A stretch of 64,000 nucleotides of DNA from Ilumatobacter sp. (lineage in GTDB: Bacteria; Actinomycetota; Acidimicrobiia; Acidimicrobiales; Ilumatobacteraceae), in contig NZ_JBKAGH010000009.1 of assembly GCF_046290335.1 (NCBI RefSeq), positions 65,869 to 129,868 on the forward strand. The letters are read 5' to 3'. Shown one piece after another: positions 30,934 to 38,502 of the stretch; within the stretch, counting starts at the first letter, position 1, and each line of letters starts with the position of its first letter. The notes under the pieces were generated by a model. It was not told the origin of the DNA. It did no database searches and saw only the letters and a program-made list of their open reading frames with translations. The translations under genes were made by a program, and so were the position numbers.

Positions 30934-33096
30934 TCAGGCGGTGGCCGACGCGGCGAGACGCCATCTCGTCGGCGACGAGCCCTCGACGAGTCGAACCCTC
31001 GAGCCGTCACCGAGCGCGTCTCGTGTCGAGCCGTCCACGATCACCCCGAACTCGTTGCGTTCGCTGCTGATCGCCAGCGCCTGCCGCACCGGTGCCCCCC
31101 AAGCAGCGAACGTCAGCGAGCCGCGTTGGAGCAGGCCTGTGCCGACCTCGCCGCTCGCCATCCCGACGACAACCCGCGCGCGCAGCTCCGCGTCACCGTG
31201 CACACCGTCACCGTGCACAGCGTCACCGTGCACAGCGTCGACCACCGCCTGCGCGAAGCCGATCGCCGCGTCCGCGCACGGCCCGTCGCTGCCGATCCCG
31301 ACGAGGAACAAGAATCGATCAGCAGCGCCGCGCACGAGTTCGACGCCGTGATCGGCCGCGACGGCCACGATCCGGCGCGCGGCGGCGACCAGGTCGTCGT
31401 CGCGGTCGTCGTCGCTCTCGACGACGACCTCCACGGCAACCACGGTCGCATCCTCGAGCACGTCACCCGAACCGGTGACCTCCCCGTCGGCACCGACGAC
31501 ACGCTTGGGGAGAAACGCTTCGAGGAGCTGGCGCTTCGCGTCGTACTCCTCGACCAGCGCCGCCTCTTGCGCGCCGAGCCGCCGAGCCATCTGAGCCAGC
31601 CGGCGGGAGAGATCGGCGAACTCGTCGTTCGTCGACGAATCGATCTGCGGATCCCGCTCCCCGTCGAGCACGGCGCGCGCCGCGGCGATCACGGGCGGAA
31701 TCGGGCGAGTCATGCGACGCGACAACCACCAGCCGATCGCTCCGGCGATCGGCAGGGTGAGCATCAGCACGAGCCCGAGCCGCCGAGCGTAGGCAGACAG
31801 CGGTGAGGCCACGTCGCTGTTGGGCACATCGACGACGACCGCCCAATCGACGCCGACAACGTCGATCGGCGTCGCGAAACTGAACGTCGACTCGCCGAGG
31901 TAGTTCGTCGCCGACCCCTCGAAATCGCGCCCATCCCGCGCCTCGCGCGCTGGCTCGGTGTCGACCTGTTGCACGCCGATAGGGGACCCGAACCCCTCGA
32001 TGAGCGTTCGGGTCACCGGGTCGTCGACCCGAGACAGATAGTCGTCGGGGTCCTCGATCCAGCGACGGCTCTCGCTGCGCAACAGCAGGTCGGCGCCCAC
32101 CACGTAGCTCTCGCCGCCGCCGAGACCGACGAGTTCCCACTGTTCGTCAGCGGTCGTCACCCGAGTCAGCGCGTCGACGTCGATCTCGACCACGAGCGCA
32201 CCGATCACCTCGGTCTCGAGCCGAACCGCTGCGGCGATGAACGCGACCGACCGGCCCGCCGCCGGGAGATAGCGTTCGAAATCGGCGATGACCGCGTCGC
32301 CGACACGCACGCGATCGAGACCATCGCGCAACGCCACCGCGAGGTTGGACGTTGCGAACGGCCCATCGGCGAACGAGGTCCCGACGTCGACGCGCTTGTT
32401 GACCGAATACACAACGTTGCCCTGTGCATCGACGAGCAGCAGGTCGCCGACGCCGACGGCGTCGGACAGCGAACGCAGGAACGGATGCTGGCGAGCGTGC
32501 ACCTCGGTGTACGCCGACCCGTCGCCGGGATCGACCACGGCGCGCCGCTCCACGCGGTCTACCCCGGCGAGCGTGTACACGCCCTGCAGGTACCGCTCCC
32601 GCGGATCGGTCGGCTCGAGCCGCTCCGGGTCGACTTTGTCGAGGCCCGCGACCGTGGCGACGTCGCCGGCGGTGAGCGGATCGATCACGTCCTGGGCATA
32701 GAACTCGCTGAGCGCCACGTCCGTCGGCTCGTCGAGCGTGTCGTCCATCGCCGCGAACGCATCGGCGAAGTCGTCGAGCGCGAAGGACACCGCCAGGTCC
32801 GACGCGAGCACCGACACCTCGGTCACCAGCGATTCCGCCCCCAGCTCGATCGCATACGCGCGAGCTCGACCGATGTCGACGAGTTGCTCCTTCGTACCAT
32901 CGTCGAGAAGATCGCGTGCAGCAACGAAGTTCAGACTGCCGATCAACAACACCGAGACCGCAGCCACGCCGACGAACACACCGGTGAGTTGACGACTCAG
33001 CCGCCGGGGCCGATGCCACCAACGCGTCCGCACCGTCGCGTCGGAGCGATCGCTGGTCGTGTCGGCTGGCTCGCTGGAGTCGATCAGTCCGGTCAC
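30934..33096 (-). CDS. Membrane protein: TM, Cache-like, TM, HAMP and highly degenerate class III cyclase-like domain (copy B)
   Basis: Two TM helices flank a large extracytoplasmic region; HAMP MTRPI...NDEFADL; cyclase remnants ATVVAVE, VRGAADRF, VGMASG, FAAWGAPV. Confidence 0.75.
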   Translation of the reverse strand: MTGLIDSSEPADTTSDRSDATVRTRWWHRPRRLSRQLTGVFVGVAAVSVLLIGSLNFVAARDLLDDGTKEQLVDIGRARAYAIELGAESLVTEVSVLASDLAVSFALDDFADAFAAMDDTLDEPTDVALSEFYAQDVIDPLTAGDVATVAGLDKVDPERLEPTDPRERYLQGVYTLAGVDRVERRAVVDPGDGSAYTEVHARQHPFLRSLSDAVGVGDLLLVDAQGNVVYSVNKRVDVGTSFADGPFATSNLAVALRDGLDRVRVGDAVIADFERYLPAAGRSVAFIAAAVRLETEVIGALVVEIDVDALTRVTTADEQWELVGLGGGESYVVGADLLLRSESRRWIEDPDDYLSRVDDPVTRTLIEGFGSPIGVQQVDTEPAREARDGRDFEGSATNYLGESTFSFATPIDVVGVDWAVVVDVPNSDVASPLSAYARRLGLVLMLTLPIAGAIGWWLSRRMTRPIPPVIAAARAVLDGERDPQIDSSTNDEFADLSRRLAQMARRLGAQEAALVEEYDAKRQLLEAFLPKRVVGADGEVTGSGDVLEDATVVAVEVVVESDDDRDDDLVAAARRIVAVAADHGVELVRGAADRFLFLVGIGSDGPCADAAIGFAQAVVDAVHGDAVHGDGVHGDAELRARVVVGMASGEVGTGLLQRGSLTFAAWGAPVRQALAISSERNEFGVIVDGSTRDALGDGSRVRLVEGSSPTRWRLAASATA
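31191..31235. repeat. Three 15-bp tandem units encoding VHGD(A/G) within cyclase copy B
   Basis: cgtcaccgtgcaca(c/g) x3. Confidence 0.85.
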
Positions 33097-34613
33097 GACG
33101 AGACCTCCCGATCGGTCGCACCAAGGCTGCTACCCCGGCCAGGTTCAGCGATGTGGCTGGTATCGGCCGCGAGGAGTCGCTCGAGTCGATGGCGCCGGAC
33201 CTCGGTGATCCGGTTGAGCGCTGCCGACAACGCCGCGCTGCGAGACACCACCTCACCGGCCACGTCGGCATCGACGATCACCACGTCGCAGTCGGTCATC
33301 GCCCGGATCACCAGATCACGGCCAGCGACACCCGAACCGTCGAGCAGGCCCATCACGTCTCCGCTGCGCAGGTCCGACACGGCGACATCCGGTCGATCCG
33401 GCCCGACCAACTGGAGCAATGCCGTCCCGTCGACCAACACCACCAGGTCGCGGCTGCCTGCCGACGCTCGCAACAGTTCCTCGCCGACGGCATAGCGCAG
33501 GGCGTGGCCCGCGTTCGCCAAGAGGTCGAGTTGGTCGTCGTCGAGCGACGCGAGCAATGGCGACGCGGCAAGCCGCGCTCGGAGTTCGGCCGTGGTCGGC
33601 GTGCTCGACGCGGCGGTCGTGACACCGTCGTAGATGAAGAGATCTTGAGCAGGGCTGGGGAGCCCGACACCGTGACGGTGCGACTGGTACCAGACCAATG
33701 AACCGAAATCGCTCGACACGCGCGGAGCGATCGCGTAGTCCTCGATCCACATGTCGACCTCGTAGGTCATCAACGGGTCGTCGACCTGCACGACCCGAAC
33801 CGCGGGCGGGGGATCGGCCACCACTCCGCGTGTTCCGCGGGCGGCGTCGAGCAGCATCGCCTTCGCCAGCGTCGGCGGATTGTGGAACGCGACCTGCACC
33901 GACACCACGACCCGATGGAGCGCATCGGGCGAGGAGTAGTTGACCACGCTCGCACCCGCCAGCTCGCTGTTGGGCACGATCACCGTGTCGCCGTCACGGG
34001 TCAGGATCCGGGAGGTCCGCCAGTTGATGTCGACGACCTTGCCTTCCACATCTCCCGCACGGATCCAGTCACCCGGCTGGAACGGTTGATCCGACAGCAG
34101 CAGCAAACCAGCAGCCAGGCCGCTGAGCGTGTCTTGCAATGCGAAGGAGATCACGAGCGAGGTGACGCCGAGCGCGGTGAGCGCGGCCGACAGGTCGACA
34201 CCCCACACATCGTCGACCAGCAACCACGCGGCGACGAGAATCGTGGCGATCTTCGGCAGGGCCAACACGAGCTGTGGCACGGCGCGACGTCCCGGGACAG
34301 CTGGCCGGGAACGCACGTCGGCCACGAGGCGACCGATGACGCCGTACACCGCGACGGCGATCGACAACACCAGTCCGGTGCCGGCCGCGCGCACGACGAA
34401 GTCACCACCGTCGAGTCCGAGCACCGGGACGAGCAGCGCCCAGATCGCGAAGAACGGGAGGGTCCAGTTGCGAAGCGTGACGACCGACGACCGAAGCGCG
34501 GACTCGCGCTGGCGGAGTCGCTCGTCGAGCTCGGCCACCACGATGATCGCCAGGGGGACCACCACGATCACGACCACTGCCCAGAGTGCGCTCGTGTCGC
34601 CGAACGACCTCAC
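33093..34613 (-). CDS. MscS-family channel with a C-terminal cNMP-binding-like domain
   Basis: SFALQDTLSGL, PFQPGDWI, GKVVDINWRTSRI, VPNSELA; C-terminal region DLVVLVDG...GDVMG...IRAMTD. GTGA overlaps at both ends. Confidence 0.88.
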   Translation of the reverse strand: MRSFGDTSALWAVVVIVVVPLAIIVVAELDERLRQRESALRSSVVTLRNWTLPFFAIWALLVPVLGLDGGDFVVRAAGTGLVLSIAVAVYGVIGRLVADVRSRPAVPGRRAVPQLVLALPKIATILVAAWLLVDDVWGVDLSAALTALGVTSLVISFALQDTLSGLAAGLLLLSDQPFQPGDWIRAGDVEGKVVDINWRTSRILTRDGDTVIVPNSELAGASVVNYSSPDALHRVVVSVQVAFHNPPTLAKAMLLDAARGTRGVVADPPPAVRVVQVDDPLMTYEVDMWIEDYAIAPRVSSDFGSLVWYQSHRHGVGLPSPAQDLFIYDGVTTAASSTPTTAELRARLAASPLLASLDDDQLDLLANAGHALRYAVGEELLRASAGSRDLVVLVDGTALLQLVGPDRPDVAVSDLRSGDVMGLLDGSGVAGRDLVIRAMTDCDVVIVDADVAGEVVSRSAALSAALNRITEVRRHRLERLLAADTSHIAEPGRGSSLGATDREVSS

Positions 34614-36790
34614 GTCAGCACCCCCGGCACCTCGCGGCGAACCGTCCACAGCGGCACGTCGTCACGCAGCGGGTCGAGCGTCACTGCGCCGTCGGGCAGT
34701 CTCGAACGCACGGCATCGGAGACGACGATCGTTCCCGCCGTGCCTCGTCGAGCGAGCGCATGCGCCACGGTGACCGTGTCGCCCCACACGTCGTAGAGCA
34801 GGTGGTTGGCCCCCGTGAGCCCTGCGGTGACCGGACCGGTGTGCACGCCGACGCCGAGGCGCACATCGACACCTTCGAGTTCTCCGAACCGCGCGACACG
34901 GTCGAGGAGTTCCTCGGCGAAGGCGACGGAGCGCGGTGCGTGGTCGATGTAGGGCCGGTCGTGGCCACAGGAGGCGTAGTAGGTGTCACCGATCAACTTG
35001 ATCCGGTCGAGTCCGTGACGGAGGGCGACGGCGTCCACCTCGTAGAGGAGTTCGTCGACCCTCGATCTGGCCGATCCCGTGTCATCGTCGACGACCTCGT
35101 CGAGGCCGTCGAACACGACCACGGCGATCGTGGCCTGTCGGACCTCCTCCGGTGCGTGCTCCTCGCCGAGGATCACGCGTTCGGCCTCCGCTGGCGGCAG
35201 CAGTTCCCGCAACACCCGCAGCCGTTCGGCAAGCGCCCGCTCGAGCTCTGACTGCTGCTCGGCCAGGGTCGCTGCCATCGTCTCGAAACCGATCGCCAGC
35301 TCCGCGAACTCGATCGGGCTCTGCGGCGGGATCTCGATGGGATCGCCGATCGAACCCGAAGATCCGAGCCGATCGCTGATCGAGCGAATCGGCCGCACGA
35401 CGGAATTGGCCCATGCGACGGCGGCGAACGCGAGCAGGACGACGAAGATCGCAGCGCCGACGGTGAGCAAGCGTCGAAAGTCGTCGAAGCCTCCCTCGGC
35501 CGCCTCGACCTCGATCTCGGACACGACCAGCCAGTCGAGTCCACCGAAGCTCAACGGCGCCGACGTCGACACCACGTCCACGCCGACGATCGACGCACGA
35601 CGGTCGACCGTGGCCGCTCCCCCTCGGCCGGCGTTGACGGTGTCGTCGCGAGCACGCAGGACGGTCGCGACGGTGCCGGTCGAGCCGATCGTCGAGCGTT
35701 CGTCGGCGGTGAGGCGCCCCAGGTCTTCGACGGCGTCGAGATATGCGGCTGGCGACTCCAGATACCCCCTGGGGTCGCTGCGCAGCGTGCCGTCGGGGCC
35801 AACGAGGTAGGTGTCTGCGCCTTCCGGGAAGCCAGCGGCTGGCCAGTTCTCACCCGCGGTGATGCGTTCCGTCAGGTCGCTTCCGCGGAACATCAGCACG
35901 AGCGCCCCCGCCGCGTCGCCCGTGGCGGGCTCGAAAACGGCGTGCGCCACCACGCCGACCGGCTCACCCAGAGCCGGCAGGTAGTCGGCCAGATCGCTCA
36001 CCTCGACGCCCTCGTCGGGCGCTTCGAGGACGGCGGACACGGTGACGTCGAGCACCGAGCCGCTGAACGGACCGGTAGCGAGATCAGTGCCGATCTCGGG
36101 GTGCTTCTCCACCGAGTAGACCACTCGGCCCGAGTCGTCGACGAGCAGGAGATCGAACAGCCCCAGTCGCGAAGCGACGTCGCGATAGACCGGATGCACT
36201 TCTCGATGCGACTCACTCCAGAGGCTGCCGTCGCCTGCGTCGTCGAGCGCTCGCGGCGCTGCGACGTTGTCGGGATCGCTGGCATACAGCAGCTGCACTC
36301 GCGCCGCCGCGTCATCGGCCGGCACGACGTCGCGCAACTCGACGTCGCGACCCAGTTGCCGCTGCGGTTCGACGAATCGTTCGAGATACGACACCGCGAG
36401 CCGCTCGCGCTCGGCAGCGCTCGGCGCGACATCACCGATCTCGTCGAGTGTCGAGCTGAGCCGCTCGATGACGACCCCCGCCTGCGGACTCGCCGCCAAC
36501 GCACTCGTCGTACGCGACAACGACCCGAAGTAGGAGGAGATGTCGACGTCACCCGACAGCCGAAGCGCAGCGATCTGATCGTTCGTCAGTTCCGTGTCGA
36601 GGTCGCTGCCTGCGTCGACGCCGACGACGGTCGCCACACCGAGCGAGCCGATGCCGACGAGGACGGCTGCCGCCGCGATCCGAGTCGCCATCGACACGCC
36701 ACGACGGGATCGGGCGCCCGGCGTACGGCGTTGCACGAACCGGCGACGAGGCTTGCGTGCCGACGACGCTGGGTGCACAGCGTCTGTCAC
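34610..36790 (-). CDS. Membrane protein: TM, Cache-like, TM, HAMP and class III cyclase-like domain (copy A)
   Basis: IKLIGDTYY, GVHTGPVTAG, YDVWGDTV; same architecture as copy B. Start chosen at GTG 36790. Confidence 0.85.
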   Translation of the reverse strand: MTDAVHPASSARKPRRRFVQRRTPGARSRRGVSMATRIAAAAVLVGIGSLGVATVVGVDAGSDLDTELTNDQIAALRLSGDVDISSYFGSLSRTTSALAASPQAGVVIERLSSTLDEIGDVAPSAAERERLAVSYLERFVEPQRQLGRDVELRDVVPADDAAARVQLLYASDPDNVAAPRALDDAGDGSLWSESHREVHPVYRDVASRLGLFDLLLVDDSGRVVYSVEKHPEIGTDLATGPFSGSVLDVTVSAVLEAPDEGVEVSDLADYLPALGEPVGVVAHAVFEPATGDAAGALVLMFRGSDLTERITAGENWPAAGFPEGADTYLVGPDGTLRSDPRGYLESPAAYLDAVEDLGRLTADERSTIGSTGTVATVLRARDDTVNAGRGGAATVDRRASIVGVDVVSTSAPLSFGGLDWLVVSEIEVEAAEGGFDDFRRLLTVGAAIFVVLLAFAAVAWANSVVRPIRSISDRLGSSGSIGDPIEIPPQSPIEFAELAIGFETMAATLAEQQSELERALAERLRVLRELLPPAEAERVILGEEHAPEEVRQATIAVVVFDGLDEVVDDDTGSARSRVDELLYEVDAVALRHGLDRIKLIGDTYYASCGHDRPYIDHAPRSVAFAEELLDRVARFGELEGVDVRLGVGVHTGPVTAGLTGANHLLYDVWGDTVTVAHALARRGTAGTIVVSDAVRSRLPDGAVTLDPLRDDVPLWTVRREVPGVLT

Positions 36791-36870: not shown

Positions 36871-38502
36871 TCAGGTCGCGACGAGTGGTCGCACCACGAC
36901 GCGGTTGCGGCCGAGGCGTTTCGCATCGAGCAGACGCGCATCGGCTTCGACGAGCAACTGGCGAACGTCCGACAACACGCCCACGGCGACGCCGCCGCTC
37001 ACCGTGAGCTCGAGGCCACTGGCGATGCTCTCCCAGTCGTGCGTGGCGATGGTGAGACGGACACGCTCGGCCGCCGACCACCCGAGCGACGCGACGTCGT
37101 CACCGACCTCAACGACGTCGAGGTCGCACATGACGACGACGAATTCTTCGCCGCCGACACGGGCGACCGCCGCCGCCGGCCCGACGCTCACGCGCAACAG
37201 CTCGGCGAACCGAGCGAGCACGTCGTCACCGACGTGATGCCCGAACGTGTCGTTGACGACCTTGAAGTGATCGATGTCGAACATCATCGCGACGCCGAGC
37301 CCCGGAGTCCGTTCGAGTTCGCTCAGTCGGCGGTCCAACCATCGGCGCGACTTCACGCCGGTCAGAGCATCTCGATCGATGTCGTCGGCGAGACGCTCGG
37401 CGATGTCCCGCAGCACCGAACTCGACCGTTCCAGCTCGGCTCGGCGGCGGATCTGGTCGCCGAGACGGCCGACCTGCTCGAGATGCCAGGCTCGCGACAA
37501 GCGCGCCAGCCGTAGCGCATCGGCGCTTGCACGATCGTGTTGACCGAGCGCGGCAAGCGCCCGCGACCGCTCCTCCAGTGCTCGCGCCAGGCAATGGTTG
37601 TCAGCACTCGCTTCGAGGCCCGGAATCGCCAGATCGAGCAGTTCGACCGTCGTCCCCGGAGCGTCCTGGCGCGCCGCGTGCATCGCCCGGACGAGCCGGT
37701 GCCAGGCGACGAGATCGGGTGCTGCGTCGCGATAGTGGCGTTCGGCAGCATCGAGCACCATTCGATCCATCGGCTCGTCGACCACCACCGCCGCTTCGCC
37801 TGCCAGCCCATCAGCCAGCATCGTGCGCGACACCTCGTCGACGCCGTCACGACGAAGCCACTCGATCGCGGCGGTGACGTCGTTCATGTAGCACGCTCGC
37901 CGAATCGGGTCCTTCGTGGCGTACGCCGCTTCTACGCTCATGTAGCCGAACGAATAGGCGACCGGATCGACGGGCACCCCTGCAAGATGTCGGGCCCCCT
38001 CGAACGCATGGCGGCCCGAGTCGACCGCGAGTTCGAACGCGCCGAGCCGCATGAAAAACCCCGACACCCCGAGCGCGGCTCGCACCGCGTCGACGTCGGC
38101 GATGGGTTCCGGGCCCTCCGAGAGGTCGGCGAGCATCACCAACGCATCGACGACGTGGTCGACCGCTGCCGCCGACTCGCCGATCTGGTCGAGGAACACC
38201 GCCGCCATCGACGACGCGAATGCCGCGACAGAGATCTCGCCTGCTGCGACCAGGTACGGCACGGCCTCGCGAGCCGAGGCAGCCTGGAGCGATGCGTCGC
38301 CGCGCCCCTGCAACGCCACGCAGCGGGCGACGAGTAACTTGCCGAGTTCCGCTGGATCGCTGACCGGAGAGGTGGCCGCGATGGCGGCGTCGATTCGAGT
38401 GACCACGTCGTCGTCGGGCGCGAGCGACATACGGCGTGCCGCCGCGGTCAGCTCCTCACTCGACTCGATCGTCATCTCGACCCGATCCTCATCTCGACTC
38501 AC
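36871..38502 (-). CDS. Diguanylate cyclase (GGEEF) with a helical/TPR-like N-terminus
   Basis: FDIDHFKVVNDTFGHHVGD, ARVGGEEF, TVSGGV, AKRLGRNR. Confidence 0.9.
   Translation of the reverse strand: MSRDEDRVEMTIESSEELTAAARRMSLAPDDDVVTRIDAAIAATSPVSDPAELGKLLVARCVALQGRGDASLQAASAREAVPYLVAAGEISVAAFASSMAAVFLDQIGESAAAVDHVVDALVMLADLSEGPEPIADVDAVRAALGVSGFFMRLGAFELAVDSGRHAFEGARHLAGVPVDPVAYSFGYMSVEAAYATKDPIRRACYMNDVTAAIEWLRRDGVDEVSRTMLADGLAGEAAVVVDEPMDRMVLDAAERHYRDAAPDLVAWHRLVRAMHAARQDAPGTTVELLDLAIPGLEASADNHCLARALEERSRALAALGQHDRASADALRLARLSRAWHLEQVGRLGDQIRRRAELERSSSVLRDIAERLADDIDRDALTGVKSRRWLDRRLSELERTPGLGVAMMFDIDHFKVVNDTFGHHVGDDVLARFAELLRVSVGPAAAVARVGGEEFVVVMCDLDVVEVGDDVASLGWSAAERVRLTIATHDWESIASGLELTVSGGVAVGVLSDVRQLLVEADARLLDAKRLGRNRVVVRPLVAT

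Follow-up and report, generated by a model that had tools for sequence, protein, structure and literature searches.

We analyzed a 64,000-nucleotide stretch of an Ilumatobacter sp. genome (assembly GCF_046290335.1, contig NZ_JBKAGH010000009.1, positions 65,869 to 129,868), hereafter the window, and found that three genes at positions 30934-36790 form a conserved, translationally coupled operon that is clearly one functional unit. The first and the third of these genes, here denoted A and B, encode paralogous transmembrane receptors with C-terminal domains homologous to class III nucleotide cyclases, and the gene between them, M, encodes a MscS-type channel with a C-terminal domain resembling the binding domains for cyclic nucleoside monophosphates (cNMP). 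Neither receptor carries the full set of catalytic residues of a cyclase, no combination of the two restores one, and the phosphate-binding cassette of the channel tail lacks its Glu throughout the family and its Arg in most members. We regard it as the most likely mechanism, with about even confidence, that this receptor-channel unit works without a diffusible cyclic nucleotide.

The window, with a G+C content of 65-70%, is part of contig 9 of a 5.5-Mb genome that belongs to the Genome Taxonomy Database (GTDB) genus holding Ilumatobacter nonamiensis. Translated open reading frames (ORFs) place the three genes consecutively on the minus strand, in the order A, M, B:

34610-36790, minus strand: gene A, receptor of 726 amino acids (ORF and translation; Pfam; 81 near full-length orthologues)
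33093-34613, minus strand: gene M, MscS-type channel of 506 amino acids with extra N-terminal transmembrane helices and a C-terminal cNMP-binding-like domain (Pfam and PDB matches)
30934-33096, minus strand: gene B, paralogue of A of 720 amino acids, with the same architecture (BLASTP; Pfam HAMP; 76 near full-length orthologues)
34610-34613, minus strand: overlap of the A stop and the M start, GTGA (direct reading)
33093-33096, minus strand: overlap of the M stop and the B start, GTGA (direct reading)

A preliminary description of this locus had reported three genes joined by GTGA overlaps, and both overlaps were read directly in the sequence. Runs resembling Shine-Dalgarno sequences (GGGGG, GGGAGG) lie 8-13 nucleotides (nt) upstream of the starts at both junctions. 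The arrangement recurs in related loci, where an in-frame 4-nt overlap is found at 55 of 67 A-M junctions and at 64 of 66 M-B junctions.

Degenerate cyclase sites in both receptors

As a reference for the catalytic positions, we used a canonical cyclase of the same genome (C7:61162-61680; FAD..KVLGD..TAMGD..VVNVAAR), to which every A and B orthologue was aligned by its C-terminal domain. The register of the alignment is fixed by the DxxGxT motif, whose Gly does not vary in A. The residues in the window, and the counts over 77 distinct A and 73 distinct B sequences, are as follows:

Metal Asp 1: V559 in A, E556 in B; Asp in 0/77 A (Val in 56) and in 5/73 B
Lys position: K598 in A, R589 in B; Lys in 68/77 A (Arg in 8), Arg in 55/73 B
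Metal Asp 2: D602 in A, D593 in B; Asp in 72/77 A and in 49/73 B
Specificity (adenine-specifying) Asp: D667 in A, A664 in B; Asp in 77/77 A, Gly in 45/73 B
Asn position: T674 in A, R671 in B; Asn in 4/77 A and in 0/73 B (Arg in 59)
Arg position: A678 in A, A675 in B; Arg in 7/77 A and in 0/73 B (Ala in 50)

The residue calls made for A and B in the preliminary description agree with this alignment and hold across the orthologues, so that these residue states are traits of the two families and not an accident of one genome. With metal Asp 1 absent from all A and nearly all B sequences, neither subunit carries both metal-binding Asp residues, and no conserved acidic substitute was seen near this position in the alignments of A or B. 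The transition-state pair of Asn and Arg is missing from both subunits, whereas the substrate-specifying Lys and Asp are present in A and not in B, in which no canonical catalytic position holds the standard residue throughout. Judging from these residues, both domains have probably lost catalysis.

Two conserved Arg residues can be added to the earlier account, namely, the Arg that occupies the Asn position in B and R681 of A, which lies three residues, or one helix turn, past the Arg position and is Arg in 68 of the 77 sequences. The Lys of A co-varies with the Arg at the Asn position of B (counts 53/6/0/6), with only about two independent lineages behind this pattern.

The channel and its altered cassette

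Pfam searches with M identified MS_channel_2nd (73.7 bits), MS_channel_3rd (22 bits) and, weakly, cNMP_binding (PF00027; E = 0.037), which most M orthologues carry in precomputed annotation. The PDB matches were MscS, YnaI, MscM and MscK, those to MscS and YnaI at E values of 1e-18 to 1e-20. Two regions were delineated, of which the first includes a pore motif, LGVTSLVISFALQDTLSG, that is nearly invariant among the orthologues:

33666-34217, minus strand: pore helix and MscS beta and alpha-beta domains, residues 133-316 (Pfam, PDB)
33204-33581, minus strand: cNMP-binding-like domain, approximately residues 345-470 (alignment to CRP; NCBIfam matches of the encapsulin-2B/CRP type)

We aligned the tail of M to Escherichia coli CRP and to 86 distinct orthologues. 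The cassette of the window protein reads G-L-L against G-E-L in CRP, with L423 at the position of Glu72 of CRP, as the preliminary description had noted, and Glu is found at this position in 0 of the 86 sequences, being replaced by Leu, Val, Ile or Met. At the positions that correspond to Arg82 and Ser83 of CRP, Arg is found in 33/86 and Ser or Thr in 8/86, respectively, and no other conserved Arg was found in the cassette region of these orthologues. The intact phosphate-binding cassette (G-E ... R-S/T-A) is therefore absent from M, and the tail has probably lost the ability to bind cNMP. Apart from the channel, the conserved unit has no output module.

Two invariant segments of M outside these domains are candidate contact sites. 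One is E-x-x-ERLRQR-x-S in the loop after the first transmembrane helix (residues 28-38, approximately 34500-34532), and the other is an Arg-rich helix, RRxRxxR, that follows the cNMP-like domain (residues 473-479, approximately 33177-33197).

Conservation and selection

A search with the M alignment over one genome per species yielded 171 loci, the best 80 of which were examined. Nearly all of these 80 come from Acidimicrobiia (Ilumatobacter, Ilumatobacteraceae), a small number bearing the label Actinotalea or Jiangellales, and the order A-M-B was found in every one with long enough flanks as well as in 13 genomes of the same genus. Across genomes of that genus, A, M and B are either present together or absent together. 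Among the cultured carriers of the triad is Ilumatobacter nonamiensis YM16-303 (locus L058).

All three genes are under purifying selection. In pairwise comparisons of 12 close species pairs, the ratio of nonsynonymous to synonymous substitution rates (dN/dS) was 0.11-0.31 for A (median ~0.14), 0.06-0.18 for M (median ~0.11) and 0.06-0.32 for B (median ~0.16). Relaxed selection on B, which the preliminary description had named as a finding that would overturn its reading, was not observed: B is constrained to a similar extent as A, and its cyclase-like domain taken alone gave 0.09-0.34. Within M, the N-terminal and channel part (0.03-0.14) and the cNMP-like tail (0.09-0.35) were also compared separately. 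In the phylogenetic tree, A and B each form a monophyletic clade, which implies that the duplication giving rise to them is old and that both copies have been retained.

Several complete triads carry labels from outside Acidimicrobiia, namely, L068 (Actinotalea sp. M2MS4P-6), L069 (a metagenome-assembled genome, MAG, of Jiangellales), L067 (a Nanopelagicales MAG) and L108 (labelled Saprospiraceae). At least the cultured Micrococcales isolate among these is likely to have gained the unit as a whole by horizontal transfer, and some of the MAG labels may be binning errors. In two other genomes of the same genus as the window, at loci L035 (G027:C8) and L034 (G001:C41), all three genes contain frameshifts and B is split over at least 4 frames. 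These represent either decay of the whole unit or assembly errors, between which the statistics of flanking ORF lengths do not discriminate, the high G+C content giving many spurious long ORFs.

The genes that flank the triad are not conserved in the related loci. In the window, a GGDEF (diguanylate cyclase) protein of 543 amino acids (36871-38502, minus strand) is encoded upstream of A in the same orientation, with its end 80 nt away, and an SDR protein is encoded on the opposite strand past the 3' end of B; both were ruled out as members of the unit because they are not conserved beside the triad. A promoter scan of the locus found none, and a terminator scan gave only one weak terminator-like site, fewer than expected by chance. 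The start of A has two candidates within 36692-36790, the annotated GTG at 36790 and an ATG 33 codons downstream (MATRIAAAAVLVG, MATRIAAAA) that lies just before the first transmembrane helix.

Architecture of the receptors

Receptor A consists of an N-terminal transmembrane helix, a periplasmic double-Cache sensor, a second transmembrane helix, a HAMP domain, an LLP transducer element and the cyclase-homology domain, that is, it is a dCache-HAMP transmembrane receptor in which the sensor lies between the two helices. The domains of both receptors that could be mapped are:

35501-36691, minus strand: periplasmic double-Cache sensor of A, approximately residues 34-430, with an extra helical insert (AlphaFold2, AF2; Foldseek)
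35261-35410, minus strand: HAMP domain of A, residues 461-510 (Pfam HAMP, E = 0.0015, 19.2 bits, below the 25-bit cut-off; homologous to the HAMP domain of B, which passes)
34661-35158, minus strand: cyclase-homology domain of A (Pfam Guanylate_cyc, 82 bits; alignment of catalytic positions)
30982-31479, minus strand: degenerate cyclase-homology domain of B (AF2; Foldseek; Pfam matches of orthologues)
31190-31239, minus strand: 15-nt in-frame tandem repeat of 3.3 copies (AVHGDAVHGDGVHGD) inside the cyclase-like domain of B (Tandem Repeats Finder score 93)

The Pfam dCache_1 match of the A sensor is weak and under the cut-off. The sensor was modelled with AF2 from a 69-sequence alignment at a predicted local distance difference test (pLDDT) value of 92.5, and the top Foldseek matches of the model were all dCache ligand-binding domains (Mlp37, DctB, PctA/C/D, Tlp3; probability 1.00, target TM-score ~0.5-0.58), so that the sensor is a true dCache fold. 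The Guanylate_cyc match of A, in spite of its score, covers profile positions 33-160 only, and the closest solved relatives found by sequence in the PDB are the C1 domains of the mammalian adenylyl cyclases (AC) AC5 and AC9, and Rv1625c.

The relationship of B to A is apparent from BLASTP (29% identity over 549 amino acids, including the C-terminal domain; E = 4e-30), the two sensors being only ~30% identical. Pfam identifies in the window B protein the HAMP domain alone (28.4 bits, above the cut-off), and its cyclase-like domain gave no Pfam match and no PDB sequence match even at E = 10. PF00211 is matched by 65 of 67 B orthologues, with the window protein one of the two that fail. An AF2 model of residues 451-720, built from an alignment with 67 orthologues, has a pLDDT of 89.8 and matches soluble guanylyl cyclase (sGC), Rv1625c, Cya2, CyaC and RhGC in Foldseek (probability 1.00, E values 5e-12 to 1e-8), so that the C-terminal domain of B is a true cyclase fold. 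The tandem repeat is particular to this genome, with no counterpart in the orthologues, and falls on a low-pLDDT loop of the model; its insertion may explain, in part, the Pfam failure of the window protein.

The Cache sensors of A (residues 184-199) and of B (the matching region) share a DxGDGSx(W/Y)xxxHxxxH motif, and the RxWY motif of amino-acid sensors was found in neither. Sensor motifs are also shared by A, B and the mycobacterial receptors described below, in which both His residues of this motif are replaced by Asn, a substitution that hints at a different ligand there.

Mycobacterial receptor-channel pairs

In a phylum-wide search, the second tier of M relatives, identified by exact look-up, comprised proteins of Mycolicibacterium rutilum, M. 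crocinum, Mycobacterium lacus and Agromyces intestinalis. Each of these channels is preceded by a single receptor of ~730 amino acids, and there is no B. Sequence identity to the proteins of these four species is 28-31% for A and 28-30% for M, with the gene order as in the window, and the receptor is present in 53 of 61 sampled genomes of the genus of M. lacus, M. lacus counted. The preliminary description had named a cyclase-channel pair, Rv2435c/Rv2434c, of M. tuberculosis. We found such pairs in M. lacus, M. rutilum and M. crocinum, and they fit the Rv2435c/Rv2434c type. Rv2435c has been described as a dCache_1 protein with a mammalian-type cyclase domain (PMC4822843, PMC3961136).

The mycobacterial pair is not, however, a canonical comparator. 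Its cyclase domain reads FADIVG, with Asp 1 kept, IRTxHNGY, with Lys replaced by Arg and Asp 2 by Asn, and YDMWGAAV(N/S)LAY(Q/R), and the cassette of its channel, G-(L/V/Q)...LTRQP, is without Glu and has a conserved but shifted Arg. Thus, each of the three receptor clades (A, B and mycobacterial) lacks at least one metal Asp. Compared with the triad, the pairs are homologous in receptor and channel, follow the order of A-M and are likewise non-canonical, but they lack B, retain the metal Asp 1 that is lost in A, and carry the shifted cassette Arg, whereas the loci of the Acidimicrobiia type are not two-gene units, a receptor B following M wherever the flank suffices.

Two genomes close to M. 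lacus, at loci L159 (G567:C3) and L160 (G559:C157), each contain two complete receptor-channel pairs, ~70% identical to one another, which are directly tandem in L159 and ~7.5 kb apart in L160. This pair duplication is independent of the duplication that produced A and B. A cyclase-channel-cyclase triad that had been considered in these two mycobacterial genomes was rejected, being two complete pairs in tandem.

How the receptors might act on the channel

In the mechanism we consider most likely, an extracellular solute would be sensed by the Cache domains of A and B, and the HAMP domain and a coiled-coil transducer helix would relay the signal to the cyclase-like domains, paired as a dimer. 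This dimer would act on the channel by contact with the cNMP-like tail of M, without a diffusible cyclic nucleotide, and a nucleotide may be bound, but not turned over, in the adenine pocket that A retains (Lys, Asp and one metal Asp). In a more specific form, which we put forward tentatively, a heterodimer of the pseudo-cyclase receptors would dock on the vestigial cNMP domains of a heptameric MscS-type channel and open or close it in response to the solute. We infer heterodimerization, physical contact with the channel and its gating; the first of these is favored by the asymmetric losses in A and B and by their strict co-occurrence, homodimers being sufficient in the single-receptor relatives.

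Several observations weigh against this reading. The same genome has canonical cyclases able to supply cyclic AMP (cAMP), and bCNG (bacterial cyclic-nucleotide-gated) channels have been published as gated by cyclic nucleotides (Caldwell 2010, as cited in PMC13591265). Moreover, A retains metal Asp 2 (72/77) together with the two residues that specify the substrate, the Lys and the Asp (the latter in 77/77), none of which a purely structural domain would need, and the two conserved Arg residues of B (59/73) and A (68/77) lie at or near the transition-state positions. These residues make a non-canonical active site, unlikely as we hold it to be, the main rival of our reading.

In this alternative, A and B would together be an active cyclase of a non-canonical kind, probably a heterodimeric one, whose local product, cAMP or another nucleotide, is bound non-canonically by the tail of M, the two making up a private maker-reader pair in line with the textbook model. 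Apart from the retained residues, including the near invariance of the adenine-specifying pair and metal Asp 2 in A, the co-variation between A and B speaks for such an enzyme, as does the retention of Asp 1, the specificity Asp, often Asn or Arg, and the shifted LTRQP Arg in the mycobacterial relatives. There are cNMP domains, those of the Epac type, that lack the cassette Glu and still bind cAMP. However, one subunit would have to supply both metal Asp residues, and Asp 1 is found in no A and in only five B sequences, with no conserved acidic substitute nearby. On the side of the reader, no more than 33/86 triad channels have the cassette Arg and no other Arg is conserved there, and the co-variation reflects few lineages.

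It is unlikely that A and B are instead two separate homodimeric receptors that respond to different ligands and act on the same channel without forming a heterodimer. The single receptor of the mycobacterial and Agromyces relatives must homodimerize, the low identity of the A and B sensors fits different ligands, and some mycobacteria have two complete tandem pairs rather than a triad. Against this, A and B always co-occur, flanking M, and their losses are asymmetric, with the purine pocket in A and not in B, as in the obligate heterodimers AC C1/C2 and sGC alpha/beta. The spacing from HAMP to LLP, by hand count, is 38 residues in both A and B, which permits heterodimers and is no proof of them; the same spacing was counted by hand in the M. 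rutilum receptor, which makes it uninformative on heterodimerization.

A related reading, quite improbable in our view, is that the dimer of cyclase-like domains serves as a pseudoenzymatic sensor of an adenine nucleotide inside the cell, such as ATP, through which both the energy state and the external signal are coupled to the channel. Pseudoenzymes usually conserve a binding pocket from which the catalytic residues are gone, and A, with the adenine-specifying Lys and Asp and one metal Asp kept and the transition-state residues lost, conforms to it. The half of the pocket that B would contribute, however, is not conserved. Finally, the notion that B is a decaying duplicate of A, or that the whole locus is non-functional, suggested by the search failures and the repeat insertion of the window B and by the two frameshifted loci, is already refuted by B being intact in more than 70 species with low dN/dS in the whole protein and in the cyclase-like domain, by its confident AF2 model and the PF00211 matches of its orthologues, and by its old monophyletic clade.

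Relation to known systems and implications

In its domain composition, M resembles the bCNG channels (Caldwell et al. 2010, Malcolm et al. 2012, as cited in PMC13591265), which have a MscS pore and vestibule followed by a C-terminal domain of the cNMP-binding type, and in which the Gly/Ala packing of the pore helix is replaced by bulkier residues. It differs in that the cassette Glu is absent from all 86 M sequences and the Arg is mostly lost, and in that M is always encoded between two cyclase-like receptors. According to a 2026 review, no structure of a bCNG channel exists, and the role of nucleotides in their gating is unknown (PMC13591265).

MscK, MscM and YnaI, which are the best matches of M among solved structures and share with it the core of pore and vestibule, are gated by membrane tension. 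To our knowledge, none of the three is encoded between two dedicated receptor genes.

With the obligate heterodimeric class III cyclases (mammalian AC C1/C2, sGC alpha/beta and chytrid rhodopsin-cyclases; PMC8815786), A and B share the combination of two paralogous domains with asymmetric losses. The likeness extends to individual residues: YDVWGDTVTVAHA of A resembles FDVWSNDVTLANH in C1 of AC5, Thr taking the place of Asn and the Arg being gone. Unlike mammalian C1, however, A has no metal Asp 1, and B does not provide the contribution of C2. The obligate heterodimers keep one complete site, whereas the two metal Asp residues, and likewise Asn and Arg, come together in neither of the composite sites that A and B could form. 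A literature search found no published description of the triad or of a joint degeneracy of maker and reader.

In this family, the sites of the maker and of the reader of a cyclic nucleotide are both degenerate, but purifying selection acts on each of them in well over a hundred species. If our reading is right, the maker-messenger-reader logic of cAMP signalling has been replaced by direct coupling, with all the domains retained, and, in the more specific form of this reading, the triad would be a bacterial multi-protein ligand-gated channel derived from a cyclic-nucleotide module that lost its messenger. It offers a case in which a role of cyclase-homology domains as pseudoenzymes can be tested, suggests a possible role for the uncharacterized mycobacterial Rv2435c/Rv2434c pair, and bears on the open question of what nucleotides do in the gating of bCNG channels (PMC13591265). 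Should the mycobacterial and other pairs work alike, many of the channels called bCNG would not read free cAMP but serve as the output of hard-wired complexes of sensor and channel.

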